Assembly (NCBI GenBank): GCA_051872395.1
Contig: JBJEDU010000029.1
Coordinates: forward strand, 9,358 to 73,357
Reading direction: 5' to 3'
Source: Bacilli bacterium
Lineage (GTDB): Bacteria; Bacillota_I; Bacilli_A; RFN20; CAG-826
Length of the DNA: 64,000 bases
The notes beneath the pieces are model-generated. The model had not been told where the DNA came from. It saw nothing but the letters and a program-made list of their open reading frames with translations, and made no database searches. The position numbers were made by a program, and so were the translations under genes. Shown here piece by piece: positions 6,456 through 24,309 of this stretch (position 1 is the first letter of the stretch; each line of letters starts with the position of its first letter).

Positions 6456-6457
6456 AA

Positions 6458-7903: not shown

Positions 7904-8060
7904 TTAATTTTTCCTCTTCTTTTTTAAAAAAATTTTATCGGTAGCAGTTTCTTCATAAATCGATATTTTTTATAGAAGAAAAAGTGTTCCATCCAAGTCA
8001 AAATTAGTAACTTGCCTCATATTGATAGTTTATCATTGAATGAATACTAATATAAATAAA

Positions 8061-9731
8061 TTAATCAAAATAACTATTCGCGCCGGTCACTATCTCATCA
8101 TTATGACTAATCGATAGATTATAAACATAGTTACCGATATTTAATAAAGAAGAATTATCAGTTAAATATTCATTATCGATATAAACATTATTAATATTAA
8201 TATCTTTAACAAAATGCTCTTCAGTATTATTAAATCCACTTCTATTATCTAAACATCCACTTATATTGATTAAAGATTTAGAAGCATTAGATAAAACTAA
8301 AACATTATTAATATAAATAGATTCAATAAAGCCCAAAGACGTTGTCGCGTGATTAGTGGACCAAGTTGAAGAATATAAATTTTGAATATCAATTAGATAA
8401 GGAACTCCATCTCCACACCCCATTCTTGCATTTTCAATAGTGATGTTTTCAAAATGGACATTTTTAATGTATGCATTATTTGCATTATGAATTGAGATAA
8501 CTGCTTTATGGTAGTTAAATAATACTGTTATATCTTTAAAATAAATGTCTTCAAATACTAAACCAACGGTCTCATATCCAAGTTCCATTGACTGGGCTAA
8601 ATCAGTCCATATTTGACATTTTTCAAATACGATATTTTTTGTGGTTCCTTGTTCGTTTCTATTAGACCATTTAGGATAATTTTTAACAACTAGAGAATCA
8701 TCCCAAGTTCTAACAAAAGAATTTTTGCAAATGACATTTTGACAAGATTGAACGCTAACGCCATCACCATTGCTTCGCGAAGAAATTATTTTTATATCTT
8801 CTAATAAAACTTGATTAGAAAAATATAAATTATAGCACCAGCCAGCAGGATCGAGAGTGGTTATTCCTTTAAAAATAATATTGCTACAGTAATTAAATTC
8901 AAAAGGAATCAACTTACTTCCAGTTTCACCATTCCTTTCAAAATCCGCACCTAAAACAATTCCATCACCAATAATTTCAATATTTGAGGCGGAATTTGCA
9001 ATAAAACCAGCTTTTAAAACTGCGCCTTTTTCTAAAATTACTGTCGTATTGCTACTTAATGAAATTAGATTATTACTACCAATATAAGAAGAATTATTTT
9101 TATCATGAATACCTTTTTCAAAGACAATCGTTTTATTATTTGAAAAAGATGAAGCATATCCATCTATAGGATTAACAAATAGATGAAAAGAATAGTTTTT
9201 TAAAAAAGAAATAGTATATTGACCTAATTCAGAAATTTTAAAATTGACCACTCTTCGATTATAATCTTTTTCATGTTCGATATGTTTATCGCCGGGCATA
9301 ACTCTCGTAGTCAATTCTTTAAATGCGAAATTGGTTTGTAAAGATAAATTTATTTCACCATCTAAATTAATAATAGCAACTCCGGCTTCAACAAATATTT
9401 GAGGGTTGGCACTCCAAACTCGATTAGGGTTTGTGTTAGTGTGATAAACCGGTATTTCTTTGTCTCCGCAAAAAAGACGAAATGAAGAAGCATAAATGTC
9501 TTCATTTAATTTATTTGAATAATCTAGTTGCCCTTTAATGCTTCCTTTATTAGAAAAATAATCTTCTTCTAATATATAAAATCCATCATCATCTTTTTCA
9601 TATTCTTTTTCTATAATACTTTCATATTCATTAGATGAAGATTGAGAAGAAAAGTCATTATTTACTGTACAGGCAGATAAAAATACTATTAAAAAAGAAA
9701 TCAAAAAAATTCTAAATTTCTTCATTTTCAA
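8061..9731 (-). CDS. Surface lipoprotein with a right-handed beta-helix (pectate-lyase fold, GH28-like) putative glycoside hydrolase domain
   Basis: Lipoprotein signal MKMKKFRIFLISFLIVFLSAC. The motif block SNGDGVSVQSC...VRTWDDSLVVKN...WTDLAQSMELGYET resembles GH28 NTDGI/GDDC boxes. It is paralogous to the 21589..24213 protein. The start overlaps the upstream gene's stop. Confidence 0.6.
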   Translation of the reverse strand: MKMKKFRIFLISFLIVFLSACTVNNDFSSQSSSNEYESIIEKEYEKDDDGFYILEEDYFSNKGSIKGQLDYSNKLNEDIYASSFRLFCGDKEIPVYHTNTNPNRVWSANPQIFVEAGVAIINLDGEINLSLQTNFAFKELTTRVMPGDKHIEHEKDYNRRVVNFKISELGQYTISFLKNYSFHLFVNPIDGYASSFSNNKTIVFEKGIHDKNNSSYIGSNNLISLSSNTTVILEKGAVLKAGFIANSASNIEIIGDGIVLGADFERNGETGSKLIPFEFNYCSNIIFKGITTLDPAGWCYNLYFSNQVLLEDIKIISSRSNGDGVSVQSCQNVICKNSFVRTWDDSLVVKNYPKWSNRNEQGTTKNIVFEKCQIWTDLAQSMELGYETVGLVFEDIYFKDITVLFNYHKAVISIHNANNAYIKNVHFENITIENARMGCGDGVPYLIDIQNLYSSTWSTNHATTSLGFIESIYINNVLVLSNASKSLINISGCLDNRSGFNNTEEHFVKDININNVYIDNEYLTDNSSLLNIGNYVYNLSISHNDEIVTGANSYFD

Positions 9732-11503
9732 AAAAGTGCCTTTTCATCATCCTTAGAAAATAAATATATAGATGATTCATCAAAAGATAATGAGATTTCT
9801 TGATTATCCACTACCTTATTTTTAATTGAAGTTGAAATAATTAATTTTTCTTTCTTATTTATTAACGAACAATAAATCAAGCAATCTTCTCCAAGATGTT
9901 CACATAAATCGACCCTTGATTTAATCGATTGTTCTTTATATAAATAATCATTTTCTAAATATATAGCTTTAGGTCTAATACCTAAATATACTTCTTTATT
10001 TATATATTCATCCTTGATTTTATTTTTTAAATCTTTTGAAGTAACAAATTTTATTTCATCAAATAATAGGTTTTTATCTTCATCGATTTTAGCATCGATA
10101 AAATTCATTGGTGGGGTTCCAATAAAACCAGCGACAAATTTATTAACTGGGTGAAGAAATAATTCATCTGGACTACTAACTTGTTGAATATATCCATCTT
10201 TCATAACAACAATTTTATCCCCCATTGTCATCGCTTCAATTTGATCATGGGTAACATAGATAAAGACAGTATTTAATTTTTTATGTAAATTAGTAATCTC
10301 ACTTCTCATTTGTCCGCGCATTTTAGCGTCAAGATTTGAAAGTGGTTCATCTAAAAGAAATACTTTTGGTTTTCTAACAATCGCTCTTCCTAACGCTACG
10401 CGTTGACGTTGACCACCTGATAAATTTTTAGGGTATGAATCAAGTCTATCTTTTAATCCAATAATTTCAGCGGCAGAATTTACTATCTCGTTGATTTCTT
10501 TTTTACGATTTTTTCGGTATTTTAAACTAAAATAATACTCTAATGGAATTCTTTTATTAGTTAGAGGAAAAGTAATATTTTTCTTAACAGTTAGATGAGG
10601 ATATAAAGCATAATTTTGAAAAACCATTGCAACATTTCTATCTTTTGGGTCGACGTCATTTAATATTTCATCATCGATATAAAGTTCTCCATCAGATATT
10701 TCTTCAAGTCCGGCAATCATTCTTAACATCGTTGATTTTCCACATCCAGAAGGACCGACAAAGACAACAAATTCATTATCTTTAATTTCTAAATTGAAAT
10801 CATGAACTGCTTCAAATCCATTAGGATATATTTTTTTAACATGTTCAATTTTAATATGTGTATTATTTTTTAACACTAAAGGTAATAGTTCTTTAATGCT
10901 TTTTAATTTATAGTTAGCCTTTTCATATAGGTCAGCACCATTAATACCACATGATTTAATCTTTGCGTTTTTCGCAGCGTCTATTCCCGCTTGTGCGTCT
11001 TCCACTACTAAAACTTCATCTCTTTTTAAAAATAGTTTTCTTCTCGCTTTAGTAAAAACTTCTGGGTGAGGTTTAGAATGCTTGATTAAATTTCCATCGA
11101 TAATTACATCAAACATATCTTTAATTTCTAATTGTTCCAATATTTTAATGGTATTTTTACTAGAAGAGCCAATCGCTAATTTAATATTGTTTTCTTTCAA
11201 AGTTTTTAATACTTCAAAAACATTAGGTAATAAATCTTTTTTAGTTAATGTGGATAAAGATTCGACATATATTTTATTTTTCTCGCTTGCGAGTTTATTC
11301 TTTTCATCTTGACTATATTTCTTATTAGCTTTTTCTAAAATAATTTCTAAAGAATCCATTCTAGAAACGCCTCTTAAACGATTATTTATTTCTTCATCAA
11401 AATAAATGTTTTCTTTATCAGCAATTACTTTCCAAGCATTATAGTGAAGTGTATCAGTCGTTACTAATACACCATCAAGATCAAATATAATTCCTTTAAT
11501 CAT
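9728..11503 (-). CDS. Single-ORF fusion of an N-terminal beta-phosphoglucomutase (HAD superfamily, ~215 aa) and a C-terminal sugar ABC-transporter ATP-binding protein (MsmK/MalK-like, ~370 aa)
   Basis: The N-terminus MIKGIIFDLDGVLVTTD is HAD motif I; ...GSSSKN... and ...EDAQAGIDAAKNA complete the beta-PGM pattern. The C-terminal half has Walker A (GPSGCGKST), the LSGGQRQRVALGRA signature and Walker B (VFLLDEPLSNLD), plus a MalK-type regulatory tail. There is no internal stop or frameshift. Confidence 0.8.
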   Translation of the reverse strand: MIKGIIFDLDGVLVTTDTLHYNAWKVIADKENIYFDEEINNRLRGVSRMDSLEIILEKANKKYSQDEKNKLASEKNKIYVESLSTLTKKDLLPNVFEVLKTLKENNIKLAIGSSSKNTIKILEQLEIKDMFDVIIDGNLIKHSKPHPEVFTKARRKLFLKRDEVLVVEDAQAGIDAAKNAKIKSCGINGADLYEKANYKLKSIKELLPLVLKNNTHIKIEHVKKIYPNGFEAVHDFNLEIKDNEFVVFVGPSGCGKSTMLRMIAGLEEISDGELYIDDEILNDVDPKDRNVAMVFQNYALYPHLTVKKNITFPLTNKRIPLEYYFSLKYRKNRKKEINEIVNSAAEIIGLKDRLDSYPKNLSGGQRQRVALGRAIVRKPKVFLLDEPLSNLDAKMRGQMRSEITNLHKKLNTVFIYVTHDQIEAMTMGDKIVVMKDGYIQQVSSPDELFLHPVNKFVAGFIGTPPMNFIDAKIDEDKNLLFDEIKFVTSKDLKNKIKDEYINKEVYLGIRPKAIYLENDYLYKEQSIKSRVDLCEHLGEDCLIYCSLINKKEKLIISTSIKNKVVDNQEISLSFDESSIYLFSKDDEKALF

Positions 11504-13569
11504 CTTATTTCCTCCATCTTAACTTCGTTTTTGTTTATTAAAATTTGATATTTTTTGTTTCTAAAATGAATTTTAAATGATAATTCTTTCCATCGATGAA
11601 TCAATTTTGGCTTAAACGCTAAATTGTTGTTTTCGTCAATATAAATACCGGCATAACCACGAATTACATCTAAATACGCTCCAGCGTTACTAGCAGGATG
11701 AGTGCCGCCTATATAAATTCCTCCAGCGTATATTTTCTGTTTTGTTCCTAAATCAATTGAAGATGATTGACGGAACATTTTATATGATGTTTTGTAATCT
11801 TTTGAATATAAAGCACATAAAGAATACATTGAACTCGATAATGAACTTCCATGTTCCGTATATGGCAAATAGAAATCGTAATTATTTTTAATCAAAGAAG
11901 AAGAAAAATCATTATTAAAAAGGGCTAACGCTGCAATAACATCAGCTTGCTTAATGACTCTAGTTTTACTAGCAACCCCGTTTTTAGCGCCCCAATATTC
12001 ATTTGGGTGGCGAAGTCGACTTCGTACCGTATCAACTTTAACGTCTTCGAGTTTATAGTAACCATCAAATTGTTCAATTACACCATTATGATTCGCTTTA
12101 GGAATATAAATCTTATCAATGAATTGTTTAACTTCATCTTTAAATTCATCGTTATCATCAAGATATTTAACTAATGACTCACTCGCCTTTTTTATCGAAT
12201 AATTTGTAAAGAAATTATCATTAACTCTTTCATGATATTCATCTGGACCAATAACATCATAGAAATGATAATAGCCATCAATTTCTTTTTTATAACTCAT
12301 ATAAAATTTGATGCACTCTTTCATCATTTCTAGCCCACCCAAAGAGAGCAAAGAATAATCATTAGTGTATTCTAAATAAGTCGCTAAAGCGTTGACCATA
12401 TCCGCGGATGTATGAATTTGTTTTTCATTGAAATAAGTTCTGATTGGTTCATTTGTAAAAACATCAGTGACGTTATATTTTGAACACATCTCTTTTCCTT
12501 CTTGTGATTCCCAAGGATAAAACGCTCCATCATAATGATGTTTTTTGGCATTTTCTTTAGCGTCAGACAATGTGTTGATTCGATATAATAAATTATTTCT
12601 CGCAATATTAGGATTAGTAAAAATATAAAATGGGTTTAAAAATATTTCAGTATCCCAAAATATTGCGCCTTTATATGTTTGACCACTAATACCTCTTGCA
12701 GCGATGCTATTTTTATTATCATCGTTTGATAATATCAGTAGTTGATATACGCTATAATCTAGTTCATCTTGAGCCGATTTATCACCTTTTATATGTATTT
12801 TGGCATTTTGAAAATTTTCATAAAATAATTTTGAATGATCATTTTTATATTGAAGATATATTTTTTTATTAATCTTAGATGTTTCTCTATTTATTTTATT
12901 AGGATAAATTTTTACTAAGACATAAATATTTCTAATTTCGCCTTCTTTTAAAAATGAGGACAATTGGTACATTGTTTCATTTTTTATAACATCAAATTTA
13001 TTAAATTTATAATTCGCAACTAAAGAGATGGTTTTATTTTCATTGGTCACCCCACTAAAAGCAATGCGATTATTATAAATTTTATAATTTGACTTTTTAA
13101 AATGGGGACCATTAATATCCCAAATTAAAGGATCTAATCCAATATCTATCACAACATTTTGTTCTTTCTTAGCCCTTATTTTAAAGTGAAGCAATAAAGA
13201 ATCATCGCTATGAATAGATACGAATCTTTCACTACAAATTTCTAAAGTGTTAAATTCTGTTTTTCTTTTAAAAATTGCTTTTTCAATATCTAGTGATACT
13301 TGGTGTTTACTAGCGGTATTAACCAAAAGTGAACAATCTTCAAAATTATTTTTAACATGAATATAAAAAGGGTTTGGAAGATTTATGGTTTCTCTCCATT
13401 TATCTTTGTAACGGTCATAAAAACCAGCAACATTTAAAGCGACAAGATTATCTTTTTTATATTCTTCTAAAGTTCCGCGATATCCATATTTACCATTGCC
13501 AAGTAAAAACATGTTACCAAAAGAGGTAATATTTTCTAATGAATATCCTTTTTTAATTAATGTTTTCAT
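11500..13569 (-). CDS. Glycoside hydrolase family 65 alpha-glucoside phosphorylase (maltose/kojibiose/nigerose-phosphorylase family); specificity unknown
   Basis: The protein is 689 aa. The architecture is the GH65 N-terminal beta-sandwich, central (alpha/alpha)6 and C-terminal domain. It is paralogous to the adjacent 749-aa GH65 ORF and translationally coupled to neighbours (ATGA overlaps). Confidence 0.7.
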   Translation of the reverse strand: MKTLIKKGYSLENITSFGNMFLLGNGKYGYRGTLEEYKKDNLVALNVAGFYDRYKDKWRETINLPNPFYIHVKNNFEDCSLLVNTASKHQVSLDIEKAIFKRKTEFNTLEICSERFVSIHSDDSLLLHFKIRAKKEQNVVIDIGLDPLIWDINGPHFKKSNYKIYNNRIAFSGVTNENKTISLVANYKFNKFDVIKNETMYQLSSFLKEGEIRNIYVLVKIYPNKINRETSKINKKIYLQYKNDHSKLFYENFQNAKIHIKGDKSAQDELDYSVYQLLILSNDDNKNSIAARGISGQTYKGAIFWDTEIFLNPFYIFTNPNIARNNLLYRINTLSDAKENAKKHHYDGAFYPWESQEGKEMCSKYNVTDVFTNEPIRTYFNEKQIHTSADMVNALATYLEYTNDYSLLSLGGLEMMKECIKFYMSYKKEIDGYYHFYDVIGPDEYHERVNDNFFTNYSIKKASESLVKYLDDNDEFKDEVKQFIDKIYIPKANHNGVIEQFDGYYKLEDVKVDTVRSRLRHPNEYWGAKNGVASKTRVIKQADVIAALALFNNDFSSSLIKNNYDFYLPYTEHGSSLSSSMYSLCALYSKDYKTSYKMFRQSSSIDLGTKQKIYAGGIYIGGTHPASNAGAYLDVIRGYAGIYIDENNNLAFKPKLIHRWKELSFKIHFRNKKYQILINKNEVKMEEIR

Positions 13570-15815
13570 CTTTTAATAATTGTCACACCTTCGTTAATAT
13601 TTTTAAGATGATTATAAATTTTCATCTTTATTTTTTTATTACCATTATTTGTAATCTTTAATTCATTTTTATCAATGAAGAAATTAATCAAATTACCTTG
13701 AATATTTAAATTAAATGAATATGACTTCCATTTTTTAGGAAGAGTTGGAGCGATGGATAACACTTTTTTATCGCTTCTAAATCCTCCAAAACCATAGACT
13801 ATATTTAACCACGCTGCAGCAATAGAGGTCATATGAATGCCTTCTTTTGTATTGTTATTATAATCATCCAAATCGAGTCTAGTCGCGTAGCGGAAAAAAT
13901 TATACGCTTCTTTTTCTTTCCCAATTTGATTAGCGATAACGCTATGAACAGATGGGGATAAAGATGATTCATGAATACAAAGCGGTTCGTAATATTCATA
14001 ATTGGCTTTTAATTGATCAAAAGTAAAATCTTGATTATATAAAAGCATAAACATCAAGACGTCAGGTTGCTTAATCATGTCATTTCGATAAATTCGATCG
14101 TATGACCAATTTGAATAAAGTGGAAAATCTTTATCGGGGATTTTATCTACATCGATATGAGGCAATTTAAAAAATCCATCGTGTTGCTCAAAGAGTTTCG
14201 TTTTTTCATCATAGATGATAAGCATATGATCTCGAGCTTTTTTTATTTTTGAATAAAATTTATTATTAATTTCACATTTGTTTTCAATATCTATAAAATT
14301 ATACGATTTATCTTTTTTTATTTTTAACAAATAATCAAATGTCTTTTTCGCCATGTAATTAGTGTACGTATTATGATTGACCATTAACTGAAATTCATCT
14401 GGTCCCATAACCCCATAAAATCCAAAATATTTTTTATCTTTAGAATATTCTCCTCTCGATAATAAAAATTTAGATATTTCAATCAATAATTCAATTCCAT
14501 AATTTTGCATAAAATCATGGTCATTATATACATTCATATAATGTTCAATCGCATAGGAAACCGCAGTGGAAGGTTGGAATTGACAAGAGGCATGTTGCCA
14601 TAAAGTACAAGCTTCTTCCCCAGTTCTAGTCGCAATTGGAAAACACGCGCCTTCACAATCTAAATCTTTTGCTCTTTTCTTTGCTTCCTCTAACGTATTA
14701 TATCTAAACAACAATAAATCTTTGCTTGCCTCTTTATTATTAAATAAATAATAAGGAAGACAATAGGTTTCACTATCCCAAAAAGCATGGCCTGAATAAG
14801 CTTCTCCTGTCAAACCTTTTGCCCCAATATTGTTATCTTTTTCAATTCCATGATATGTTTGTTCTAATTGAAATAAGCAAAATCTAATCCCTTGTTGATT
14901 GACTTTATCGCCATTAATGACAATGTCGTTATGTTTATAGACGTTAAAGAAATATTTTTTATTATTTTGATAAATAGAATCAAATCCTTTTTTAATAAGT
15001 GACTCTAATTCATTTTGAGTTTCTAATTTTAATTTAACTGGGTCAATTTTTACTTTTGAAGCATTATTTATTACTAATCGGTCAATAATTTTCTTCTTTT
15101 CATTAATTTTGATTTTACTTGAAATTATTAATTGATCATCAATGAATTTAATTTCTTTATTATCTAAATTAGTTACATGCATTGAAGTCGCTAAATATTG
15201 TTCAGTTGTTAATGTTTGACACACTAAAGTAGGAATATTTAAATCTTTATCAATGACCTTATAATATCTATTTTTACCCCAGTGCTTTATTGAAGCATCT
15301 AAAATAAAATCGACATCTAAATATAATTCTTTATCGCTTGAAATAGTTAATCTAACCGCACCTTCATGAACGTCAGTCATCGATAATAATCTTTCAAAGC
15401 GAATATTAATTTTATTATCTTTGACTAACCAAACAAATTCTCTAATATATTTACCATCTCTAAAATCAATTTCTCTTCGAAAGTTAGCGAAATTAGATTT
15501 ATTTAAATCTAATATTTCATCATCTAATTTAATTCTAATTTTTACCCAGTTCGTCGAATTAATGGTGAAATGAGTTCTTTTTGCAATGCCTTTATAGGAT
15601 TGATGAATTTCTTCACCATATTCAATAATTCCATTATAATAAGTACCAATTAATTGATTTGAAGAATAATCTTCATCAAAAAATCCACGAATTCCTGAAT
15701 ATTCATTAGCCAAAGAAAATAATGATTCTGAGACCATATCTCTATCTTTATAAAATCCTTTTTCTATCAATTTAAACGGATGAACTTTTAAATATTGTTT
15801 TTTTATTTTAGCCAT
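13566..15815 (-). CDS. Glycoside hydrolase family 65 phosphorylase (second paralogue)
   Basis: The protein is 749 aa. GH65-like conserved blocks (...GAKGLTGEAYSGHAFWDSE..., ...DPLCIHESSLSP...) are shared with the 689-aa paralogue. Confidence 0.7.
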   Translation of the reverse strand: MAKIKKQYLKVHPFKLIEKGFYKDRDMVSESLFSLANEYSGIRGFFDEDYSSNQLIGTYYNGIIEYGEEIHQSYKGIAKRTHFTINSTNWVKIRIKLDDEILDLNKSNFANFRREIDFRDGKYIREFVWLVKDNKINIRFERLLSMTDVHEGAVRLTISSDKELYLDVDFILDASIKHWGKNRYYKVIDKDLNIPTLVCQTLTTEQYLATSMHVTNLDNKEIKFIDDQLIISSKIKINEKKKIIDRLVINNASKVKIDPVKLKLETQNELESLIKKGFDSIYQNNKKYFFNVYKHNDIVINGDKVNQQGIRFCLFQLEQTYHGIEKDNNIGAKGLTGEAYSGHAFWDSETYCLPYYLFNNKEASKDLLLFRYNTLEEAKKRAKDLDCEGACFPIATRTGEEACTLWQHASCQFQPSTAVSYAIEHYMNVYNDHDFMQNYGIELLIEISKFLLSRGEYSKDKKYFGFYGVMGPDEFQLMVNHNTYTNYMAKKTFDYLLKIKKDKSYNFIDIENKCEINNKFYSKIKKARDHMLIIYDEKTKLFEQHDGFFKLPHIDVDKIPDKDFPLYSNWSYDRIYRNDMIKQPDVLMFMLLYNQDFTFDQLKANYEYYEPLCIHESSLSPSVHSVIANQIGKEKEAYNFFRYATRLDLDDYNNNTKEGIHMTSIAAAWLNIVYGFGGFRSDKKVLSIAPTLPKKWKSYSFNLNIQGNLINFFIDKNELKITNNGNKKIKMKIYNHLKNINEGVTIIKR

Positions 15816-15817
15816 AA

Positions 15818-16738
15818 TTATTCTTTAATTCCTCCAGATGTCGCGCCACCTAAAATTTGTTTTTGGAAGATAATAAACAAAATGATTTGAGGGATCATAG
15901 ATATAACTAATAAAAGAAGGAAATCACTCGTATCAAATGTTGGGGTTGTCATCGTTCCTAAATCATAAATGTAAACCATAATGGTCGCTAATGATTCATT
16001 TTGTAATACTAGTTTTGGAAGAAGAAAGTCACAATATGCAGCGGTCATTGTAAAAATTGCAACAACACCAATAATAGACTTATTTAATGGTACAATGACT
16101 TTAAAGAATACTTTAATATCACCAAGACCGTCGATTCGAGCGGCCTCAATAAAACTTTTTGGTGTCTTTTCAAAAGAATTCTTTAAAAGCATGTAATAAT
16201 ATGCATTAGCCCCAAAAGTTAAACAAAGTGGTAAATAGGAATTAATAAGTCCCAATTTAGTAATTTCCATAAATAATGGCACGATTGATAATGCAGAAGG
16301 TATCATATAGCCTAATAAAATTAAAATGTTGATTACCTTATAACCAACAGGTTTTAAAATTCCAACAACGTACGCTAAAAGGCCATTAAAAACAACAGAA
16401 CAAATAATCGCCCCAATAACAACAATCAAAGTGTTACCATAATATTTTAATAAATCCATCTTTTGCCACACTTTAAATATTTTTGTAATATCAAAAACTT
16501 GAGGAAAGAGATGATATTTTGTTGAATTGATTTCTTGAATAGTTTTAAAAGAAGTAATAAATAACCAAATAATTGGCACTAAAGCCACTAAAACAAACAA
16601 AACTAAAATGGTAATAAATATCGCATAAATTATCTTATTATGAAGTTTTCGATAATCAGAAAAATTTAATACACCATTTAATTTATCTTTTAAATGTTTA
16701 TTATTATATTCTAAGGTTTTAGTTTTTCTCTTTTTCAT
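15818..16738 (-). CDS. Carbohydrate ABC transporter permease (MalG/UgpE-like)
   Basis: Six TM helices and an EAA-like loop (FIEAARIDGLGDIKVFFKVIVPL). Confidence 0.8.
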   Translation of the reverse strand: MKKRKTKTLEYNNKHLKDKLNGVLNFSDYRKLHNKIIYAIFITILVLFVLVALVPIIWLFITSFKTIQEINSTKYHLFPQVFDITKIFKVWQKMDLLKYYGNTLIVVIGAIICSVVFNGLLAYVVGILKPVGYKVINILILLGYMIPSALSIVPLFMEITKLGLINSYLPLCLTFGANAYYYMLLKNSFEKTPKSFIEAARIDGLGDIKVFFKVIVPLNKSIIGVVAIFTMTAAYCDFLLPKLVLQNESLATIMVYIYDLGTMTTPTFDTSDFLLLLVISMIPQIILFIIFQKQILGGATSGGIKE

Positions 16739-17637
16739 CTAATTTTCTCCTTAGAATTATTAAATCTATTAGTAAATAAGAAATAAATAACTGTAATTAA
16801 AATAATAATTAAAGCAAGAATAACACTTGTTGCTGCACTTTTTGTATCTTCCATATTTGTGAAATATAAATATGATAATTGCATTAATGACATCGCGTCT
16901 TTTGATTTGTTTCCAGCGATAATCATCGGCTCATAAAATACTTGGAAGACAGATATAATTTGTAAGATTAATAAAGTTAAAATTGTCGGCTTCATTAAAG
17001 GCATCGTAATCTTAAAAAATCTTTGAAGAGGACTGGCCCCATCAATACGACTAGCTTCATATAAATTAGAATCAATATCTTGGAAATTTGACATGTAAAT
17101 TAAAGATGTGCCTCCAAATCCCTTCCAAGTCATCGCGACAACAATAAGAGGAATAACGATATCAGAATTGCTTCTAAAATTCATTCTTTCCAAACCAAAT
17201 ATCGATCTTATAACATTAAGTATCGAATACGCTTCATCTCCATATATATTTTGAAATAAGAAGACAACAGCGATACCGCTCAACATACAAGGAATATATA
17301 AACAAACTCTAAAAAATCCTTTAAGGTGGATAACTTCACTAAGAATAAATCCAACAATCATTGGAATAAAAAATCCAATAACAATCGACCATAAAATGTA
17401 TTTAAAAGTATTGAAAAATGCTGAAACAAAATAATTATCTTTGAATACCGCTTGATAATTAGCGAAACCAACAAATTTATCCATATCATAATTAGAGAAA
17501 AATGAAATGAATATATTTTTAATAAGCGGATACCAAACAAAGAATACGAAAAGAAGAAGCGTTGGAAGCATGATTAGCCATGCGACAACATTTTTCTTAA
17601 TTTTAGAAATTATTTTCTTCTTTTTCTTTATATTCAT
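16735..17637 (-). CDS. Carbohydrate ABC transporter permease (MalF/UgpA-like)
   Basis: Six TM helices and an EAA loop (YEASRIDGASPLQRFFKITMPL). Overlaps the downstream gene by 4 nt. Confidence 0.8.
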   Translation of the reverse strand: MNIKKKKKIISKIKKNVVAWLIMLPTLLLFVFFVWYPLIKNIFISFFSNYDMDKFVGFANYQAVFKDNYFVSAFFNTFKYILWSIVIGFFIPMIVGFILSEVIHLKGFFRVCLYIPCMLSGIAVVFLFQNIYGDEAYSILNVIRSIFGLERMNFRSNSDIVIPLIVVAMTWKGFGGTSLIYMSNFQDIDSNLYEASRIDGASPLQRFFKITMPLMKPTILTLLILQIISVFQVFYEPMIIAGNKSKDAMSLMQLSYLYFTNMEDTKSAATSVILALIIILITVIYFLFTNRFNNSKEKIR

Positions 17638-17640
17638 AAA

Positions 17641-19041
17641 TTATTTATTGTTGTATGCTTCATCTAATTTTTCTTGATATTGGGCATTACAAGTCGTAAG
17701 AATTGACAATGTGTTGCAAGTTGAAGGATTATCAAATACTTGCGCGATTGCGTTATCTAATATTTCATACATTTCTTGTGGTAAATATTCAACCTCAGGA
17801 TGTTTATTTGAATCTATTGAATCGAAAAATTCATTATAATATCTCATATCAACATTGATATATTCTTCTAATAATTCATTTTTAAATTCTACATATTCAT
17901 CATTAATCCACGGTGATATTTCTTTCATGATTGGTTGATTTTTTCTTTTTGCTACTTCATAGCCATATCTCATCGCTTCTTTAGAAATATCATTAATGTT
18001 TGGGGATCTACCAATGTAATCAAAGAATTTCAAAACGCCTTTAACTTGTTCATCAGTCGCATTTTTTGCAAAGACAAATGGAGTTCCACCATATAAAGAA
18101 TATCTTTTATTACCATTGGCGCTTGGCATTGGAACAAAAGCAAAATCATTCATATCTAAGTGCGCTTGCGTGGAAGCAAGTTTAATAACATCGTTTCCCA
18201 CAACCGCCATCGCGACCTGATCACCAATTTTATTATACCAACCTTCATACTCTACCGATTTTTGATTGAGCAATAATTCTTCGTTTTTAAGTTCTTTAAT
18301 CCAATCGAGTGCGGCAACTGCTTCCTCACAGTTTAAGTTAGCTTTGATTTTTCCATTTTCAATCTTCGTTAAAGAAGCACCAAAATTCCAAGCATAATTA
18401 GAGAATTGCCAACCACCATTTTTATTTGTTGAGCAAATATAAATAGCTTTTGTGTCGCTAGATTCAGTTATTTCTCTTCCAGCTTCAATAATTTCATCAA
18501 AGGTTGTTGGATATAAAGGATTATTGTCACTATCATAAAGAATATATTTATTATCAGAATCTTTTTCAATTAATCCATTATCATAAAATGTTTTTAAATT
18601 AATCAATAAACCAAGACCATAGCCATCACGAGGAATGCCATATATTTCATCATTGAAAGTTAAAGCATCTTTCATTTCAGAGTCCATCTTATCAAGCCAG
18701 CCGACTTCTTCTAATTCACTTTGAATAGAACGAATGAAGCCTGAATTAACTAATGATTCTGGTTCAGTAAACCACGTTTGAAAAACAGTAGGAAGGGTGC
18801 CACTTCTGGCTCTTGCAATAATTGTGTCTTTTGAATATTCATAGTGGTCTGCAACAATCTCATATTGAGGAAAATCTCTTTCAAAATTTGCTTTCCAAGC
18901 AGTATACATGCTGACATCTTCTCGATCGGTTGAAAGTGGCCAAAACCCAATCTTTAATTGGATTTTATTATTTTTATTACAACCAACAAGAAGTGGAATA
19001 GAAAGCATTGTTACACAAAACAATAACGATTTATTTTTCAT
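17641..19041 (-). CDS. Extracellular sugar-binding lipoprotein of the ABC transporter (family 1 SBP)
   Basis: Signal and lipobox MKNKSLLFCVTMLSIPLLVGC. The size and composition are typical of MalE-like SBPs. I place the start at the ATG at 19041, which is preceded by GGAGGA; the track ORF begins at a TTG at 19056. Confidence 0.75.
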   Translation of the reverse strand: MKNKSLLFCVTMLSIPLLVGCNKNNKIQLKIGFWPLSTDREDVSMYTAWKANFERDFPQYEIVADHYEYSKDTIIARARSGTLPTVFQTWFTEPESLVNSGFIRSIQSELEEVGWLDKMDSEMKDALTFNDEIYGIPRDGYGLGLLINLKTFYDNGLIEKDSDNKYILYDSDNNPLYPTTFDEIIEAGREITESSDTKAIYICSTNKNGGWQFSNYAWNFGASLTKIENGKIKANLNCEEAVAALDWIKELKNEELLLNQKSVEYEGWYNKIGDQVAMAVVGNDVIKLASTQAHLDMNDFAFVPMPSANGNKRYSLYGGTPFVFAKNATDEQVKGVLKFFDYIGRSPNINDISKEAMRYGYEVAKRKNQPIMKEISPWINDEYVEFKNELLEEYINVDMRYYNEFFDSIDSNKHPEVEYLPQEMYEILDNAIAQVFDNPSTCNTLSILTTCNAQYQEKLDEAYNNK

Positions 19042-19063
19042 TAGATTATCCTCCAATTGTTTA

Positions 19064-19091
19064 ATGTAGGGGGAAAAGTCCCCCTACATTA
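19064..19091 (-). promoter_or_regulatory. Intercistronic GC-rich stem-loop between the 813-aa lipoprotein gene and the SBP gene (mRNA stabiliser or partial terminator)
   Basis: AATGTAGGGGG-aaaagt-CCCCCTACATT is an 11-bp perfect stem, exceptional in this AT-rich DNA. It sits 23 nt upstream of the SBP start. Confidence 0.5.
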
Positions 19092-19107
19092 TTAAATTTT
19101 AAAATTA

Positions 19108-21549
19108 TTAATACGCTGCTAATAAAGCACTATATGTATATGGAACATATGCTTTTGCAGCAAAAGTGATGTTAGCACTATTAGTTACACCATCAGCGAA
19201 ATGAATATGTAAAAATCCAGCAGCATTATAAGATGTTTCACCTTCAAATGTTTTTACAAGATCAATTTTTAACACTGTTGGGTTTTCTGAATCGGTTGAA
19301 ATTTCTTGATTCATATCTAAAGCGTTGCCATCAGTATCGTATACTTGACCAGCATTGACTGCTGGAGTAATTGAGCCTTCAATACGAAGTGAGGCAATAG
19401 TCGCTCCTGCTTCATCAGCAACTAAAGATAATTCAAGAACTTTAGCCATATTATCTTTTTGATTATACGCGCCAATATAAGAATATACTTCTAATTTAGC
19501 GGAATTTGGATTAGCGAGTTCAACATTATCAATTCTTGACCATTCACTGATGTAATATCTTGTATATGACATTTCAGTGATGGTTCCAGTAGAACCTTCA
19601 AATCCACCAGTATGTAAATCTGCATCAATTGTGCCAAAATTAGTGGCACTAATATCGATAGAAATTGTTAATGGATTTTCTTCATCAAAAGTTAATTCTT
19701 TTGAAATTGGATTTCCATCTAATCCAATTACTTTACTGTCTTTAAACCAGAATTCACCATTATCACAAGTAAATCTAAGCGAAGATAAATCTCCAGTACC
19801 TTTAATTGTAATATCAATTCTATAGGCATCTCCAATATAAATATATCCTCCATGAGCATAATTTGATAAATCAGGATTTGCATTTAATGGAATTGTTTCA
19901 GTTTGAACACCGACTGTGTCAGCAAAATAAATGCTATCAATTTCAACAGCGTTATTGAAATACATATCGATGAAATCATCATTTCCAATATCACTATTCA
20001 TTTCTTTTAAATCAATGATGTAATGAACAAATCCATCTTTTTGATATGGATAAGAGTCTAAATCAGTAGGAATGGATGATAAGCCTGGGCCTGCTAACCA
20101 ATCATGTGACCACATAGCGTTGCTGGCCGCACTGGCAAGTCTAAATCCTTCCATATTACCTTTTGCAACGATAACTAAATATCTTAATCCGCTGTGGACC
20201 GCAGTTCCGTTAGCTTCTTTTAAATTGACGTAACCACCTTCAGCAGGTTGAGCGATTTTAAGAGTACCATCACTAACTGAAATTAAATCTGGATTACTAT
20301 AAGATAAGGCAACACTAATACCATCTGGACTATAATCAGCGTTGCTGGCAGTATCCCAATCACCAGTAAATGATAATTGAGTTCTATTGAAGTTATCAAA
20401 GATAACTCTATTTTCAATGTCGATAAGTGGATATTCTTTTAAAGCTTCTTTATCTTTTAAATTAGTTAAGAAGATTTTTGAAATATTCAAATCAGTTGTG
20501 CTGGATAAAACTAATGTTTTTGTTAAAGATGTTTCAACAACAAAATCATAGAAAGCTCCGTTAACAGCGCCTAAATCAGTTGCAACATCGTTAACTTTTA
20601 AACCTTTTGAATCGCCGTTAGCTTCTAATACTAAATATTGATATTCAGCGTATTCATCTGGTAATTCAACTGTGTAACTACCGTTATTGATATTGACACC
20701 TTTGCGAACGATAAATCCGGTTGAATCACACCACCAAGGAGCAAATGTTGGGTTTGAATTAGTATTTGGATGATCAAAAACATCGATTGAAGTTTTTGTT
20801 GTACCTTTAACCATATAGACTTCACTTATTTCAATAACTTGAGATACTTCGGAACTATTTGAAGCATATAAATGGAAGCCTACCATTGTTTCTAATACTT
20901 TGATGCCACTTTTTGAACCATCTGGTAAAAGATATTCAGTAGTGTCATCTTCAATAGAGTTTCCTAAATCAATTTCAATATCTTGCCACTCTGTGGTTAA
21001 TTCCGCTACTTCTTCCATATCTGGATCAAAAGCATCTGCGAGATTGATTTCATATAAATTAACATTATCATCGCCACGTAAGCCAAGAATTAAGTCTTTA
21101 TTAGAAAGAGTGCCATTACCAACTTTTCTCATTCTAAAGCCAATAACATCTGGATGAGAACTTGTGAAAAGAGGGGCCGCAGTTTTATAAATTGATGCGT
21201 CCGCACTACATGGATAAACATCATGATCAGAATCTACCATTACGCGTAGTAAATTTTGATTCTCTGTTCCAATAAGTGTTCCTATTAATGTTTGAGATGA
21301 AAAGTCATCAACCATCAAGTCAAATTGCTCATTATATGTTCTTAAAAGAGCATCTTGGGCAACTTCACTAACGAATGGATCTTGGTGATCAACAACTACT
21401 TCTTGAGAGTCTCCGCCTTCACTAACATTTTCTGAAGTTTGTTCGCCACTATCTACAGTTTCTGAAGAAGAACTTGGTCCAGTTTTGTTACAACCAGTTA
21501 ATCCAAGGCCAACAAGAAGTAAAAGCGCAAGTAATTTTTTGTTTTTCAT
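19108..21549 (-). CDS. Large surface lipoprotein of unknown function (813 aa; Thr/Ser/Asp-rich, predicted beta-rich); possible glycan-binding or glycan-processing protein
   Basis: Lipoprotein signal MKNKKLLALLLLVGLGLTGC. It lies inside the GH65/ABC operon. I recognise no catalytic motif. Confidence 0.5.
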   Translation of the reverse strand: MKNKKLLALLLLVGLGLTGCNKTGPSSSSETVDSGEQTSENVSEGGDSQEVVVDHQDPFVSEVAQDALLRTYNEQFDLMVDDFSSQTLIGTLIGTENQNLLRVMVDSDHDVYPCSADASIYKTAAPLFTSSHPDVIGFRMRKVGNGTLSNKDLILGLRGDDNVNLYEINLADAFDPDMEEVAELTTEWQDIEIDLGNSIEDDTTEYLLPDGSKSGIKVLETMVGFHLYASNSSEVSQVIEISEVYMVKGTTKTSIDVFDHPNTNSNPTFAPWWCDSTGFIVRKGVNINNGSYTVELPDEYAEYQYLVLEANGDSKGLKVNDVATDLGAVNGAFYDFVVETSLTKTLVLSSTTDLNISKIFLTNLKDKEALKEYPLIDIENRVIFDNFNRTQLSFTGDWDTASNADYSPDGISVALSYSNPDLISVSDGTLKIAQPAEGGYVNLKEANGTAVHSGLRYLVIVAKGNMEGFRLASAASNAMWSHDWLAGPGLSSIPTDLDSYPYQKDGFVHYIIDLKEMNSDIGNDDFIDMYFNNAVEIDSIYFADTVGVQTETIPLNANPDLSNYAHGGYIYIGDAYRIDITIKGTGDLSSLRFTCDNGEFWFKDSKVIGLDGNPISKELTFDEENPLTISIDISATNFGTIDADLHTGGFEGSTGTITEMSYTRYYISEWSRIDNVELANPNSAKLEVYSYIGAYNQKDNMAKVLELSLVADEAGATIASLRIEGSITPAVNAGQVYDTDGNALDMNQEISTDSENPTVLKIDLVKTFEGETSYNAAGFLHIHFADGVTNSANITFAAKAYVPYTYSALLAAY

Positions 21550-21588
21550 AAACCAATCCTTTCTTAAAATTATATTAATTGTTTATGT

Positions 21589-24213
21589 TTACTCTGAATA
21601 TGCGGTAAATTCGGCTAATTGGCCACCATAGCCACCTTTATCGCTATTAGAGTAGATAACGACTTTTATATATCGGGCTTGAACGCTTTCATCAAGCCTG
21701 ACAATGTTGTTATTTCCAGTCATAGGATCAAATAAATATAATGTTGATTCTACCGCTGTGACAAATGTTGTATTGTTCTTATCGTAAGATAAATTATATG
21801 TTGATACTAAAATTTCAATCTCTTGACTTCTTGCTGACCACGCTAAAGAAGGAGAGAGGAATAAACCAAATGTTTTTAAATCATATATATCGCCTAAATC
21901 GATAACGAAATAAGCAGGTAAAGACTTACTTTCATAATAAGAAGTGCCAGTTGGATCGCCATCGTTGACACGATTAACTGTATACACATCATTGTGTTCT
22001 GTTGAATCTACAATAGGTTTATTAAATGTTAATGAAGGTTGATAAAATTCAACTTCGCTAATTTGATAATTCTTTGCATTTGTCGCACCATCGATTTTAA
22101 ATAATCGTAGTTGAATTCCATAATATTCCTGGGCAGTAATATTTATATCAATACAATTATTAACAATTGGTGACATTTCATATTCTTTTAATCCAACACT
22201 TCTCACATAGCTCTTTGTTGGATCTTTTAATACCCATACAGAAATTGTGTATTTAGAATAATATTTGTTACTTTCTAAACCAATAATTCTTAAAGTTCCG
22301 ACTGTAATGGAACGATTGAAATTGATTGTTATGGCCGCGAATTCATCTTCTTCATTAAACCATTCGCCATTTTGATAATAGGTTGATGGATCATTATCAT
22401 AAACATAATTTGCTGTATGATTTAATAGTGCAAATTCTCCGCTACCATCATCAGATTCTGATTTATTTGTCGTTCCTTTTCCATGAGTAGATGAATAGGT
22501 AAATCCATCAGTGGAAGCTTTTGAACCAATGAATGAACGTTCTCCTTCTTTCCAAGAGAATGATGGAGTTAATATTCCATCTTGCTCAACACTATTTATA
22601 GTTTTTATTTCAACATCATCACTATTTAGTTGAAGTTTATATGGAAGATAGATTTCTGCACCATGAACTTCTTCAGCTTCAAAATTAACATTTGAAACAT
22701 AATTATTAGTCGTTAATTTCAAATCTTTTGCGTTGCTTATATTTTTTCCTTCAATTTCTATTCCTTTAATAGAAACATTTTTGATCATCGATGTTTCACT
22801 TTCACCAAGCATTCGAGAACAAATTGAAGATTCGCCATTTTCTAATGTCTCCTCTTTATAAACTTTGACATTATGGATGTTAACACCATCAATTGAACCT
22901 CTATCACCACCCGATTCAGTCCATTCGACATTGTAAGCAATCGTAAAATCTACTAAGAAATCGTTTTCACCATCACTTTGATTATCACCAAACATCGCCG
23001 CATCTTCAATCGTGATATTTTCATATGTGACACCCGTGATTTCAGCTTCATCGCAGTTATGCATACTGATGACAGCTTTATGGAAATTGTGAAGAACAGT
23101 AATATTTTTGAAAGTGATATCTCTCATATACGCTCCATGGGTTTCATAGCCAACTTCCATGGATTGTGCTAAATCAGTCCAAACTGTAATTCCATCAAAA
23201 GTAACATTTTCAGTTGTTCCTAAATCATTGTTTTTTACGACTAAAGAATCATCCCAACTTCTTACAAATCCACCTTTGACATATACATCTTTACAACTTT
23301 GAACAGATATTCCATCGCTGTTTTGTCTTGCAGAAATAATTTTAATATTATTAATTGTCACATCTTCACATTTATATAAATTAATAACCCATCCTGCCGG
23401 ATTTAAAAATGTTAAATCTTCCAAAACAATATGTTTAGCGTTTCTTAAAACGACTGGAACAGTATAATCTATATCACTTGTTCTTGTATAGATATCTCCA
23501 GAAATAATACCGTGGCCTCGAATAGTTAGATTTTCAACGACTTCGCCATGAATATCACCATATACAAACGCTCCACCAGCGATATATATCGTCGTATTAT
23601 CTTTTACAGGTATCGTATCGGCTTTATATAAACCTGGACCGATATAAACGATATTATCGTCTTCGTTAGCCATCTCTTCTGTTATCGGATTTTCTTCAAT
23701 CCCATTCGTAAAAATATGAATCGCAGTTTTGTAATCGTTATTGTAAGTTAAAACGTAATTTGTTTGATAAGATAAATCAAAACTTAATTTATTTCCATCA
23801 ATTGAAATTGGAACTTGATATGCAAGAGGAGATAAAGAAGCAGTCGTAATTGTTTCATTAGTATTTATTTCTACATCGATATGAATTTTACCTTCAAAAT
23901 CAAACAAGACTACAGGAGCTTTAGTGTCTTCAGTACTCCAAGTAAATTGACGATTGTAATTAACTAATGTTTCGTAGACGAATAATTCTTGATCCTCAAC
24001 GAAAAAACGACATTTATCACTACTTGTTAATGTCTTTGGACCTTCATATATATTAATCTTAGTTTCATTAACTATTTTTTCACTTTCGATAAAGGTTGCG
24101 TCATAATCAACCGGTTTAGTGGCTATGGTGTTTTCTTTTTTACAGCCTCCTAATAAAAATGGCAGTATAAAAGAACATAAAATAAATAATCTAGTAAGCT
24201 TATTTTTGCTCAT
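21589..24213 (-). CDS. Surface lipoprotein with a beta-helix GH28-like putative glycosidase domain plus two C-terminal F5/8-type-C (CBM32-like) modules
   Basis: Lipobox ILPFLLGGC. The block QNSDGISVQSCKDVYVKGGFVRSWDDSLVVKN...WTDLAQSMEVGYETHG is paralogous to 8061..9731. C-terminal repeats (e.g. VNRVNDGDPTGTSYYESKSLPAYFVIDLGDIYDL) match the discoidin/CBM32 pattern. Confidence 0.6.
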   Translation of the reverse strand: MSKNKLTRLFILCSFILPFLLGGCKKENTIATKPVDYDATFIESEKIVNETKINIYEGPKTLTSSDKCRFFVEDQELFVYETLVNYNRQFTWSTEDTKAPVVLFDFEGKIHIDVEINTNETITTASLSPLAYQVPISIDGNKLSFDLSYQTNYVLTYNNDYKTAIHIFTNGIEENPITEEMANEDDNIVYIGPGLYKADTIPVKDNTTIYIAGGAFVYGDIHGEVVENLTIRGHGIISGDIYTRTSDIDYTVPVVLRNAKHIVLEDLTFLNPAGWVINLYKCEDVTINNIKIISARQNSDGISVQSCKDVYVKGGFVRSWDDSLVVKNNDLGTTENVTFDGITVWTDLAQSMEVGYETHGAYMRDITFKNITVLHNFHKAVISMHNCDEAEITGVTYENITIEDAAMFGDNQSDGENDFLVDFTIAYNVEWTESGGDRGSIDGVNIHNVKVYKEETLENGESSICSRMLGESETSMIKNVSIKGIEIEGKNISNAKDLKLTTNNYVSNVNFEAEEVHGAEIYLPYKLQLNSDDVEIKTINSVEQDGILTPSFSWKEGERSFIGSKASTDGFTYSSTHGKGTTNKSESDDGSGEFALLNHTANYVYDNDPSTYYQNGEWFNEEDEFAAITINFNRSITVGTLRIIGLESNKYYSKYTISVWVLKDPTKSYVRSVGLKEYEMSPIVNNCIDINITAQEYYGIQLRLFKIDGATNAKNYQISEVEFYQPSLTFNKPIVDSTEHNDVYTVNRVNDGDPTGTSYYESKSLPAYFVIDLGDIYDLKTFGLFLSPSLAWSARSQEIEILVSTYNLSYDKNNTTFVTAVESTLYLFDPMTGNNNIVRLDESVQARYIKVVIYSNSDKGGYGGQLAEFTAYSE

Positions 24214-24247: not shown

Positions 24248-24309
24248 ATTCTAACAATAAAAAAATCAAATAAAAAGTATAAGTTTATCGGTTAACAAAG
24301 GTTAACAAA
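24248..24309 (-). promoter_or_regulatory. Putative promoter of the ~16-kb glycan-utilisation operon (extended -10 TGTTAGAAT) with a tandem GGTTAACAAA x2 candidate operator
   Basis: On the minus strand, TGnTAGAAT is the reverse complement of 24248-24256. Two tandem 10-mers GGTTAACAAA (24290-24309), each containing the palindrome GTTAAC, lie 35-60 nt upstream of the -10 and 30 nt downstream of the LacI-family gene stop. Confidence 0.4.

Follow-up and report, generated by a model that had tools for sequence, protein, structure and literature searches.

We analysed a 64-kb stretch of contig JBJEDU010000029.1 from a Bacilli bacterium (the whole stretch is referred to below as the window), in which nine open reading frames (ORFs), all on the minus strand within positions 8061–24213, encode surface lipoproteins, an ATP-binding cassette (ABC) importer and two glycoside hydrolase family 65 (GH65) proteins. 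We incline to the view that these genes form a LacI-repressed operon for the use of an alpha-1,3-linked glucan, which would be cut at the cell surface, imported and degraded by two phosphorylases. The general scheme, in which an alpha-glucoside polymer would be imported and then phosphorolysed, was well supported, and the alpha-1,3 assignment, predicted from signatures in the GH65 proteins, was moderately supported. Database names of the locus proteins were generic ('glycoside hydrolase family 65 protein', 'discoidin domain-containing protein', 'hypothetical protein'), and our literature search found no account of the locus or of a new beta-helix alpha-1,3-glucanase family.

Gene organization and conservation of the locus

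The features of the locus, in the order of transcription, were as follows.

24340–25365, minus strand: LacI-family repressor gene, 341 residues; Pfam LacI helix-turn-helix, Peripla_BP_1 and Peripla_BP_3
24276–24305, minus strand: promoter-like TTAACC-18-TATACT from a consensus scan, 9 of 12 matches; consensus match only
24283–24296, no strand: operator-like palindrome GTTAACCGATAAAC, consensus GTTAACCGGTTAAC, conserved between the LacI gene and the first gene
21589–24213, minus strand: beta-helix lipoprotein L, 874 residues; Pfam GH28 and F5/8-type-C; lipobox LLGGC
19108–21549, minus strand: all-beta lipoprotein, 813 residues; no Pfam family; lipobox LTGC
19062–19091, no strand: GC-rich hairpin with a perfect 13-bp stem, from a terminator scan, between the 813-residue lipoprotein gene and the next gene
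17641–19041 (likely gene; ORF 17641–19056), minus strand: lipoprotein substrate-binding protein (SBP); Pfam SBP_bac_1; lipobox LVGC
16735–17637, minus strand: ABC permease 1; Pfam BPD_transp_1; kept in related loci
15818–16738, minus strand: ABC permease 2; Pfam BPD_transp_1; kept in related loci
13566–15815, minus strand: GH65-A, 749 residues, predicted phosphorylase of the alpha-1,3-oligoglucan phosphorylase (ONP) type; GH65 N, m and C domains
11500–13569, minus strand: GH65-B, 689 residues, predicted phosphorylase of the nigerose phosphorylase (NP) type; GH65 N, m and C domains
9728–11503, minus strand: fusion of beta-phosphoglucomutase (beta-PGM) and MsmK, 591 residues; HAD/beta-PGM, ABC_tran and OB_MalK
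8061–9731, minus strand: beta-helix lipoprotein S, 556 residues; Pfam GH28; lipobox LSAC

The coordinates of the nine ORFs agreed with those of the initial annotation, and its description of one tightly packed minus-strand operon with a LacI gene upstream was borne out by the junctions between genes. Four of these are 4-nt overlaps (9728–9731, 11500–11503, 13566–13569 and 16735–16738), and the remainder comprise two gaps of 2–3 nt, one of 39 nt (21550–21588) and one of about 66 nt (19042–19107). The last of these values follows the probable start of the SBP gene at the ATG at 19041, which has GGAGG just upstream. The hairpin in this gap is followed by no T run on the transcribed minus strand; it may be a partial terminator or, because of the missing T run, an element for mRNA processing or stabilisation. 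Lipoboxes were read straight from the ORF translations, and signal peptides ending in them were found in the 874-, 813- and 556-residue proteins and in the SBP, with the Lgt gene present in the same window (27884–28711). The earlier count of three large surface lipoproteins plus another was reduced to three in all besides the SBP, two of them beta-helix proteins and one all-beta.

Homologues of the 874-residue protein L exceeded 1500 in the protein collection, and a scan of one genome per species returned 477 stretches encoding a relative, both paralogues counted. The best 80 of these 477 stretches were examined as related loci, with ORFs called and matched to the window proteins. All 80 came from uncultured genomes of Bacilli, Haloplasma/Haloplasmataceae and Clostridia, and one Thermotogota metagenome-assembled genome (MAG). 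The Bacilli were labelled Coprobacillus CAG:826, Ca. Enteromonas, Ca. Coproplasma, Ca. Scatosoma, Mollicutes and Acholeplasmatales, one host lineage carried the label Anaeroplasma bactoclasticum, and the Clostridia included Oscillospiraceae, Christensenellaceae and Acutalibacteraceae. The recurring set consisted of L, the 813-residue lipoprotein, the SBP, two permeases, GH65-A, GH65-B, beta-PGM and/or MsmK, and S; it was found in the 80 genome loci and in five further contigs, with the order permuted in several lineages. A GH65 gene followed the second permease in 31 of about 32 informative loci (those with at least 2.6 kb visible beyond it), and S was seen in 41 of 81 loci, a count limited by flank length. 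No other glycosidase recurred in the 80 loci, and the recurrent ORF clusters without a match in the window were all regulatory.

The features of a LacI-repressed sugar operon, a LacI-family regulator and a palindrome in the promoter region, were present. Within the 64 kb of the window GTTAACCGATAAAC was the only match to GTTAACCGGTTAAC at two or fewer mismatches (chance expectation 0.17), and it falls inside the spacer of TTAACC-18-TATACT; the initial annotation had placed the promoter near 24250, and the promoter-like hexamers were found at 24305–24276 instead. The LacI gene occupied the same position in 32 related loci, 30 of which had the palindrome between LacI and the first gene, as compared with 12 across 580 kb of other sequence from those loci. 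The LacI protein matched NCBIfam LacI-family models, every one below its equivalog cut-off. These features suggest that it represses the operon through the palindrome.

Regulatory genes differed in other lineages. In loci of the Clostridia/Haloplasma type LacI was missing and three other genes stood in its place, one for an AraC-type response regulator, one for a His_kinase-type sensor and one for a conserved protein without a Pfam match, about 325 residues long. The two-component genes sit between the homologue of the 813-residue lipoprotein and the SBP gene (L043, L056, L059, L061, L062, L083 and about 25 more). In the Thermotogota MAG (L063) the order was LacI, L, the 813-residue homologue, SBP and two permeases, followed by an OmpR-type two-component system.

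The two GH65 phosphorylases

Both GH65 proteins scored above the cut-off for PF03636, PF03632 and PF03633. They had been described as paralogous, and paralogues they are, but distant ones of 27% identity that fall into different subfamilies. In the numbering of CsKP, which is used for all GH65 residues here, both keep the acid E483, the phosphate-site residues K/R330 (K330 in GH65-A), S631, S632 and H675, Y337, and the -1 subsite residues W343, D344, K596 and Q597. These phosphorylase residues were also kept in 33 orthologues of GH65-A and 14 of GH65-B. The phosphate-site residues replace the catalytic base of the hydrolases and set GH65 phosphorylases apart from them (PMC11442529). Because the acid, phosphate-site and -1 subsite residues are kept, GH65-A and GH65-B are both, as read from these residues, phosphorylases that would release beta-glucose 1-phosphate, and this fits the beta-PGM encoded in the operon.

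The specificity of GH65 enzymes has been linked to six co-evolving positions, 64, 392, 394, 402, 416 and 585 (PMC8537180), and to a +1-subsite triad at 391/392/417 that reads WET in kojibiose phosphorylases (KPs), MVI in maltose phosphorylases (MPs), WRA in trehalose phosphorylases (TPs) and WEF in NPs (PMC11442529). Additionally, loops 3, 7 and 11 are short in MPs, TPs and ONPs and long in NPs and glucosylglycerol phosphorylases (GGPs) (PMC11442529, Table 3), although the length of loop 7 did not discriminate in our alignment. Reference sequences of LbMP, CsKP, BsGGP and 6W0P were rebuilt from PDB alignments and that of YcjT was taken from the E. coli genome.

GH65-B closely resembled the characterised nigerose phosphorylase AmNP. 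It carries E-E-Q-S-Y-G at the six positions, as compared with E-E-Q-S-H-G in AmNP (five of six, with Y416 for H416), and W391, E392 and F417 were shared by GH65-B, AmNP and 14 of 14 orthologues, in which the NP-type signature as a whole was kept. Loops 3, 7 and 11 measure 26, 10 and 10 residues in both proteins, loop 11 having 5 residues in KPs and MPs, and within loop 3 the GH65-B sequence WESQE-GKEMCSKYNVTDVFTNEPIRTYFNEKQIH is nearly equal to WESQEGGYDACSDYNVTDVFTKRPMRTHFKDKQIH of AmNP. Over a clean AmNP fragment of 311 residues the identity of GH65-B was 43%, in comparison to 35% for CsKP, 35% for BsGGP and 33% for YcjT. We therefore consider it moderately supported that GH65-B is of the NP type, predicted to split nigerose. 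Typical GH65 phosphorylases are longer than GH65-B by about 60 residues. Its best PDB match was a glucosylglycerol phosphorylase, and assignment as a GGP was tried and rejected: GH65-B has E, N and V at the positions of I382, F395 and F396 of BsGGP, with W381 and F409 kept.

GH65-A was at least 43–45% identical to ChGP, which has been characterised as an alpha-1,3-oligoglucan phosphorylase, a lower bound owing to noise in the machine-read reference sequence, and 32% identical to LbMP. GH65-A and ChGP have in common F64, I391, A392, T402, Q416, H417 and short loops, those of GH65-A (loops 3, 7 and 11) being 13, 10 and 5 residues long. At the six positions it reads F-A-R-T-Q-S, four of six in agreement with the ONP consensus FAITQA (PMC8537180), and among its 33 orthologues F64, I391, A392 and H417 were fixed or nearly so, with variation at 394 (R/L) and 402 (T/N). 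The assignment of GH65-A to the ONP type, a prediction from these signatures, is moderately supported. ONP genes usually lie beside NP genes, where the ONP shortens chains to nigerose for the NP (PMC11442529), and the overlap of the GH65-A gene with the GH65-B gene reproduces this arrangement.

Two other assignments of GH65-A were tried and rejected. As a maltose phosphorylase it would be expected to show KV[MF]NES, M391/V392/I417 and HNE, and only S585 agrees. As a kojibiose phosphorylase it would be expected to show W391/E392/T417, EEAPxx and a long loop 3, and it has I391, A392, H417, FARTQS and a loop 3 of 13 residues. The GH65 proteins do not, then, group with plain maltose phosphorylases, the outcome that the initial annotation had named as damaging to its proposal: GH65-A shares one of six specificity positions with LbMP, next to its low identity to that enzyme. 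The annotation had also proposed an alpha-1,3 substrate by analogy with the pair Cphy_3313/Cphy_3314, and this analogy gained strength from the NP signature of GH65-B and from the larger part of the ONP signature in GH65-A. Its statement that the specificity cannot be read from sequence was too pessimistic for the GH65 proteins.

An alpha-1,2-glucoside system, in which kojibiose or kojioligosaccharides would be the substrate, is in our judgement improbable. It is suggested by the closest PDB relative of GH65-A, 6W0P (874 bits), which is named 'kojibiose phosphorylase', by residues W391 and E392 of GH65-B, which KPs also use, with NPs showing 0.5–8.4% side activity on kojibiose (PMC11442529), and by the adjacent E. 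coli genes ycjT (KP), ycjU (beta-PGM) and ycjV (ABC ATPase). However, the name of 6W0P, an unpublished entry from an uncultured bacterium, reflects annotation and not an assay. It offers no evidence: KPs require W391 and E392, and the entry has V391 and A392 instead; with these residues and a short loop 3 it has an ONP-like look, and its name is probably a misannotation. GH65-A and 6W0P thus share I/V391, A392 and a short loop 3, and CsKP mutated at 391 or 392 retains less than 2.1% of its activity (PMC11442529). YcjT is only 24–26% identical to either GH65 protein, and GH65-B has the F417 and long loop 11 of an NP, not the T417 and short loop 11 of a KP.

Surface lipoproteins and the importer

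L matched Pfam GH28 with 41.8 bits (cut-off 22.9), as well as F5_F8_type_C, and S matched GH28 with 30.4 bits; the gathering score was passed by all members of a sample of ten diverse L and S proteins (29.6–46.3 bits). NCBIfam polygalacturonase equivalogs scored far below their cut-offs, for example 57 bits against 600. S lacks the discoidin domains and is paralogous to residues 1–520 of L (34% identity over 484 residues, E 2e-69), with the NGD...WDD motifs retained. N298, D300, G301, W320, D321 and D322 were invariant in 58 homologues of L, and the D...DD spacing of L is 21 residues; this spacing is 21 residues in GH28 and 19 in GH49. The GHG and RIK motifs of GH28, which bind the galacturonate carboxylates, were not recognisable by eye in the sequence, and an invariant H378-K379 of the L family is a possible remnant of a GH28 motif. 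The triad of D300, D321 and D322 corresponds to the three-Asp site common to GH28, GH49 and GH87 (PMC6814745). A family profile searched against PDB sequences found GH28 3JUR at E 2e-8, and GH49 1OGM at E 1e-3 over 49 residues only.

The AlphaFold2 model of L (predicted local distance difference test score, pLDDT, 88.7) consisted of an N-terminal beta-sandwich, a right-handed beta-helix and two discoidin/CBM32-like domains. Its top Foldseek matches were the GH49 isopullulanase and dextranases 3WWG, 1WMR, 6NZS and 1OGM (E 5e-12 to 1e-9), followed by GH28 exo-polygalacturonases. In the GH87 alpha-1,3-glucanase Agl-KA, discoidin domains bind alpha-1,3-glucan (PMC6814745), which gives a precedent for those of L.

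L and S are thus, by profile score and predicted fold, remote hydrolases of clan GH-N, belonging to GH28 by a weak hidden Markov model (HMM) score and GH49-like by structure. This agreed with the earlier expectation that the beta-helix proteins would fall into some glycoside hydrolase family, the GH28 threshold being passed in all ten members with an invariant Asp triad, and it left the GH28-like label partly in place: the weak Pfam match stands, but by fold the proteins are nearer to GH49 alpha-glucanases than to pectinases. The substrate of L and S is not readable from their sequences. From the context of the operon alone, from which activity and linkage specificity are also taken, L is a putative surface endo-alpha-glucanase and S a putative second surface glycanase.

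The beta-helix lipoproteins could also be ordinary GH28 pectinases or galacturonidases, or adhesins, that neighbour the GH65 genes by chance, a reading to which we assign very little weight. It draws on the sequence-level matches, which are solely to GH28 polygalacturonase and galacturonidase models, but the equivalog scores lie far under their cut-offs, the GHG and RIK motifs could not be made out, and no uronate-metabolism gene was recurrent in the related loci. The linkage of L, S and the 813-residue lipoprotein to the GH65 pair is kept across Bacilli, Haloplasma and Clostridia despite changes in gene order, and the invariant catalytic triad, as predicted from the alignment, argues against a pure adhesin.

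The 813-residue lipoprotein had no Pfam, NCBIfam or PDB sequence match. Its AlphaFold2 model (pLDDT 88.8) was all beta, with about five beta-sandwich domains behind a disordered linker, and Foldseek returned weak matches only, to jelly-roll and CBM-like domains, with no catalytic domain. Only 50 homologues were detectable, all in the same kind of locus; the protein is fast-evolving, and in the related loci its homologue always adjoins L. The model and this context suggest a putative non-catalytic surface glycan-binding protein. Matches of the SBP to PDB sequences were weak and uninformative, and from the company it keeps its ligands may be nigero-oligosaccharides.

The fusion protein combines beta-PGM (residues 1–190; TIGR01990 bPGM, 236.5 bits against a cut-off of 189.4) with an MsmK/MalK-type ABC ATPase (residues 216–588; UgpC/MalK-type models, ABC_tran and OB_MalK). 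The same in-frame fusion was found in nine other loci (L008, L009, L033, L037, L038, L040, L075, L085 and L086) and a separate beta-PGM in three; the E. coli equivalents ycjU and ycjV are adjacent, not fused. In the Clostridia-type loci L043 (5893–8214), L045, L047, L050 and L051, an MsmK homologue of 620–790 residues lies upstream of S; about 300 residues with no Pfam family follow its MalK OB domain, and the beta-PGM domain is absent.

Proposed function and comparison with known systems

The proposed substrate is the alpha-1,3-glucan of fungal walls, streptococcal or lactobacillar mutan, or nigero-oligosaccharides derived from them. Lipid-anchored L and S would cut the polymer outside the cell by an inverting mechanism of the clan GH-N type with the D300/D321/D322 triad, and the two discoidin domains of L, together with the 813-residue lipoprotein, would hold the insoluble glycan at the surface. 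The SBP, the two permeases and the MsmK-type ATPase would then import nigero-oligosaccharides, from which GH65-A would take the non-reducing glucose as beta-glucose 1-phosphate, starting at a degree of polymerisation of at least 3 and continuing down to nigerose. GH65-B would cleave nigerose into beta-glucose 1-phosphate and glucose, and the beta-PGM domain fused to the ATPase would turn beta-glucose 1-phosphate into glucose 6-phosphate. In the absence of inducer, LacI would be bound to the GTTAAC-CG-GTTAAC-like palindrome in the promoter.

Several observations weigh against this proposal. The best fold matches of L cleave alpha-1,6 or alpha-1,4 bonds, the best sequence matches of the beta-helix proteins cleave galacturonans, and no GH28 enzyme is known to act on glucans. 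GH87 was missing from the top 50 fold matches of L, and no GH87 chain appeared in phmmer or hmmsearch runs of L and S against PDB sequences. At positions 394 (R; R or L in orthologues) and 585 (S) GH65-A deviates from the ONP consensus, and because two of the six positions differ it could sit in one of the neighbouring uncharacterised subgroups, 2 or 3 of De Beul et al., with a preference for another aglycone. The sequences of ChGP and most of AmNP were taken, with errors, from machine-read supplementary PDFs and were compared by a frameshift-tolerant dynamic-programming alignment. Lastly, in loci of the two-component type the 10-kb flanks stop before the expected GH65 position, and the Thermotogota locus is an exception with no adjacent GH65 genes.

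Some of these points would suit an alpha-glucan that is branched or of mixed linkage (alternan, alpha-1,3-branched dextran, nigeran or isolichenan, for example), in which L and S would cut alpha-1,6 or alpha-1,4 bonds and the GH65 enzymes would trim alpha-1,3-linked glucose. We hold this to be unlikely, although it deserves consideration. It is favoured by the GH49 isopullulanase and dextranases among the fold matches, by the two consensus departures of GH65-A, and by ChGP, whose acceptors also include maltose, kojibiose, turanose and weakly isomaltose (Table S1, PMC8537180), so that an enzyme of the ONP type could trim alpha-1,3-glucose from mixed oligosaccharides. However, breakdown of the alpha-1,6- or alpha-1,4-linked cores left over would call for an MP or for a glucosidase of the GH13, GH31 or GH15 type, none of which recurs in the 80 loci. 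The Pfam GH49 models PF03718 and PF17433, which matched none of the ten sampled L and S proteins even when hits with E as high as 1 were allowed, count against it as well.

On the alpha-1,3-glucan reading, a further and bolder claim can be made, which we offer as tentative and would not yet favour. L and S would be endo-alpha-1,3-glucanases (mutanases) with no relation to GH71 and GH87, and would constitute a new glycoside hydrolase family or a new subfamily related to GH28 and GH49; the 813-residue lipoprotein would be made up of alpha-1,3-glucan-binding modules in a new array; and many uncultured gut Bacilli and Clostridia with small genomes would live on alpha-1,3-glucan from fungi or bacteria. 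This polymer is a major constituent of the cell wall in fungi and of the matrix of dental plaque, and GH71 and GH87 are the only families known to depolymerise it. If the claim is true, it would add a third and structurally different type of surface alpha-1,3-glucanase, of value to anti-biofilm and antifungal enzymology as well as to the CAZy classification. Few complete systems for polysaccharide use can be recognised in these uncultured gut Bacilli and Clostridia, and the locus, as one of them, offers a concrete and testable growth substrate for cultivation-resistant hosts, some of them labelled Mollicutes, Acholeplasmatales or Anaeroplasma. Mislabelling of the kind suspected in 6W0P may extend to similarly named homologues.

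Directly downstream, at 5727–7903 on the minus strand, lie genes for a major facilitator superfamily (MFS) transporter and a glycerophosphodiester phosphodiesterase (GDPD), for which a separate promoter may lie near 8000–7970 (TTGACT-17-TATAAA). These genes are probably not part of the system, because their homologues are absent from all 80 related loci. Were they included, the locus could be read as one for scavenging glucosylated envelope polymers, such as the kojibiosyl- or glucosyl-glycerol of teichoic acids and glycolipids, a possibility that we regard as slight in the extreme. No clear terminator was found between S and these genes, the best PDB match of GH65-B is a glucosylglycerol phosphorylase, and Anaeroplasma bactoclasticum, one of the host lineages, is bacteriolytic. 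Nevertheless, beyond the missing MFS and GDPD homologues, GH65-B lacks three of the five residues of the GGP glycerol pocket and is nearer to NP than to GGP.

The window has a G+C content of about 30%, and outside the locus it is occupied by housekeeping genes, including those for PolC, RseP, Dxr, CdsA, UppS, Frr, PyrH, Tsf, RpsB, TopA, Ffh, FtsY and others. At 4455–5651 on the minus strand lies a CapE/FnlA-type Polysacc_synt_2 dehydratase with an N-terminal HTH_3 match (residues 4–52, E 2.8e-6), after which come a UDP-GlcNAc 2-epimerase and a gene with Epimerase and Polysacc_synt_C domains; our guess is that these belong to a pathway of the UDP-L-FucNAc type. Between LacI and Lgt (25665–27654, minus strand) there are ORFs of 443 and 223 residues, for which the only Pfam match was a sub-threshold one to CDC48_N. 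The ORF for ribosomal protein S2 (40362–41441, minus strand) encodes 359 residues, of which Pfam S2 spans 44–258, leaving an unusually long C-terminal tail.

GH28 (3JUR, 5OLP, 2UVE) was the sole HMM family above threshold for L and S, which share with it the NxDG...DD motif and a GH28-like spacing, but their scores are marginal (30–46 bits), the locus has no uronate pathway and the context is one of alpha-glucoside phosphorolysis. The GH49 dextranases and isopullulanase (1OGM, 6NZS, 1WMR, 3WWG) share with L the build of a sandwich and a right-handed beta-helix, and they act on alpha-glucan substrates with an inverting three-carboxylate site (PMC6814745); in contrast, L has two discoidin domains and a lipid anchor, and no match to Pfam GH49 or GH49N. 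GH87 Agl-KA of Bacillus circulans combines a beta-helix unit, three essential Asp residues and discoidin domains, and acts on the substrate predicted here (PMC6814745). Its discoidin domains are N-terminal, unlike the C-terminal ones of L, and there is no detectable sequence or profile similarity between the two. The ycj cluster of E. coli has a GH65 gene followed by beta-PGM and an ABC ATPase, with the LacI-type ycjW; the last two enzymes are fused in the present locus, and the ycj cluster differs in having no surface glycanases and a different sugar specificity.

The most similar arrangement was that of Lachnoclostridium phytofermentans, compared by its published description, with the NP and ONP pair Cphy_3313/Cphy_3314 and the NP cluster of Cphy_1874, which has been reported to combine an ABC transporter and LacI with a putative GH87 endo-alpha-1,3-glucanase (PMC9061262). 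Adjacent GH65 proteins of the NP and ONP types, an ABC importer, LacI and a candidate beta-helix endo-glycanase are common to both organisms, as is the scheme of cutting outside the cell, import and phosphorolysis to beta-glucose 1-phosphate (PMC11442529, PMC9061262, PMC13435556). In the present locus, however, neither sequence nor profile puts the candidate glycanases, a pair of paralogous lipoproteins, in GH87; a GH31 alpha-1,3-glucosidase is missing, an extra 813-residue lipoprotein is encoded and beta-PGM is fused to the ATPase. Unlike the L. phytofermentans system, the locus described here is spread through uncultured gut lineages.

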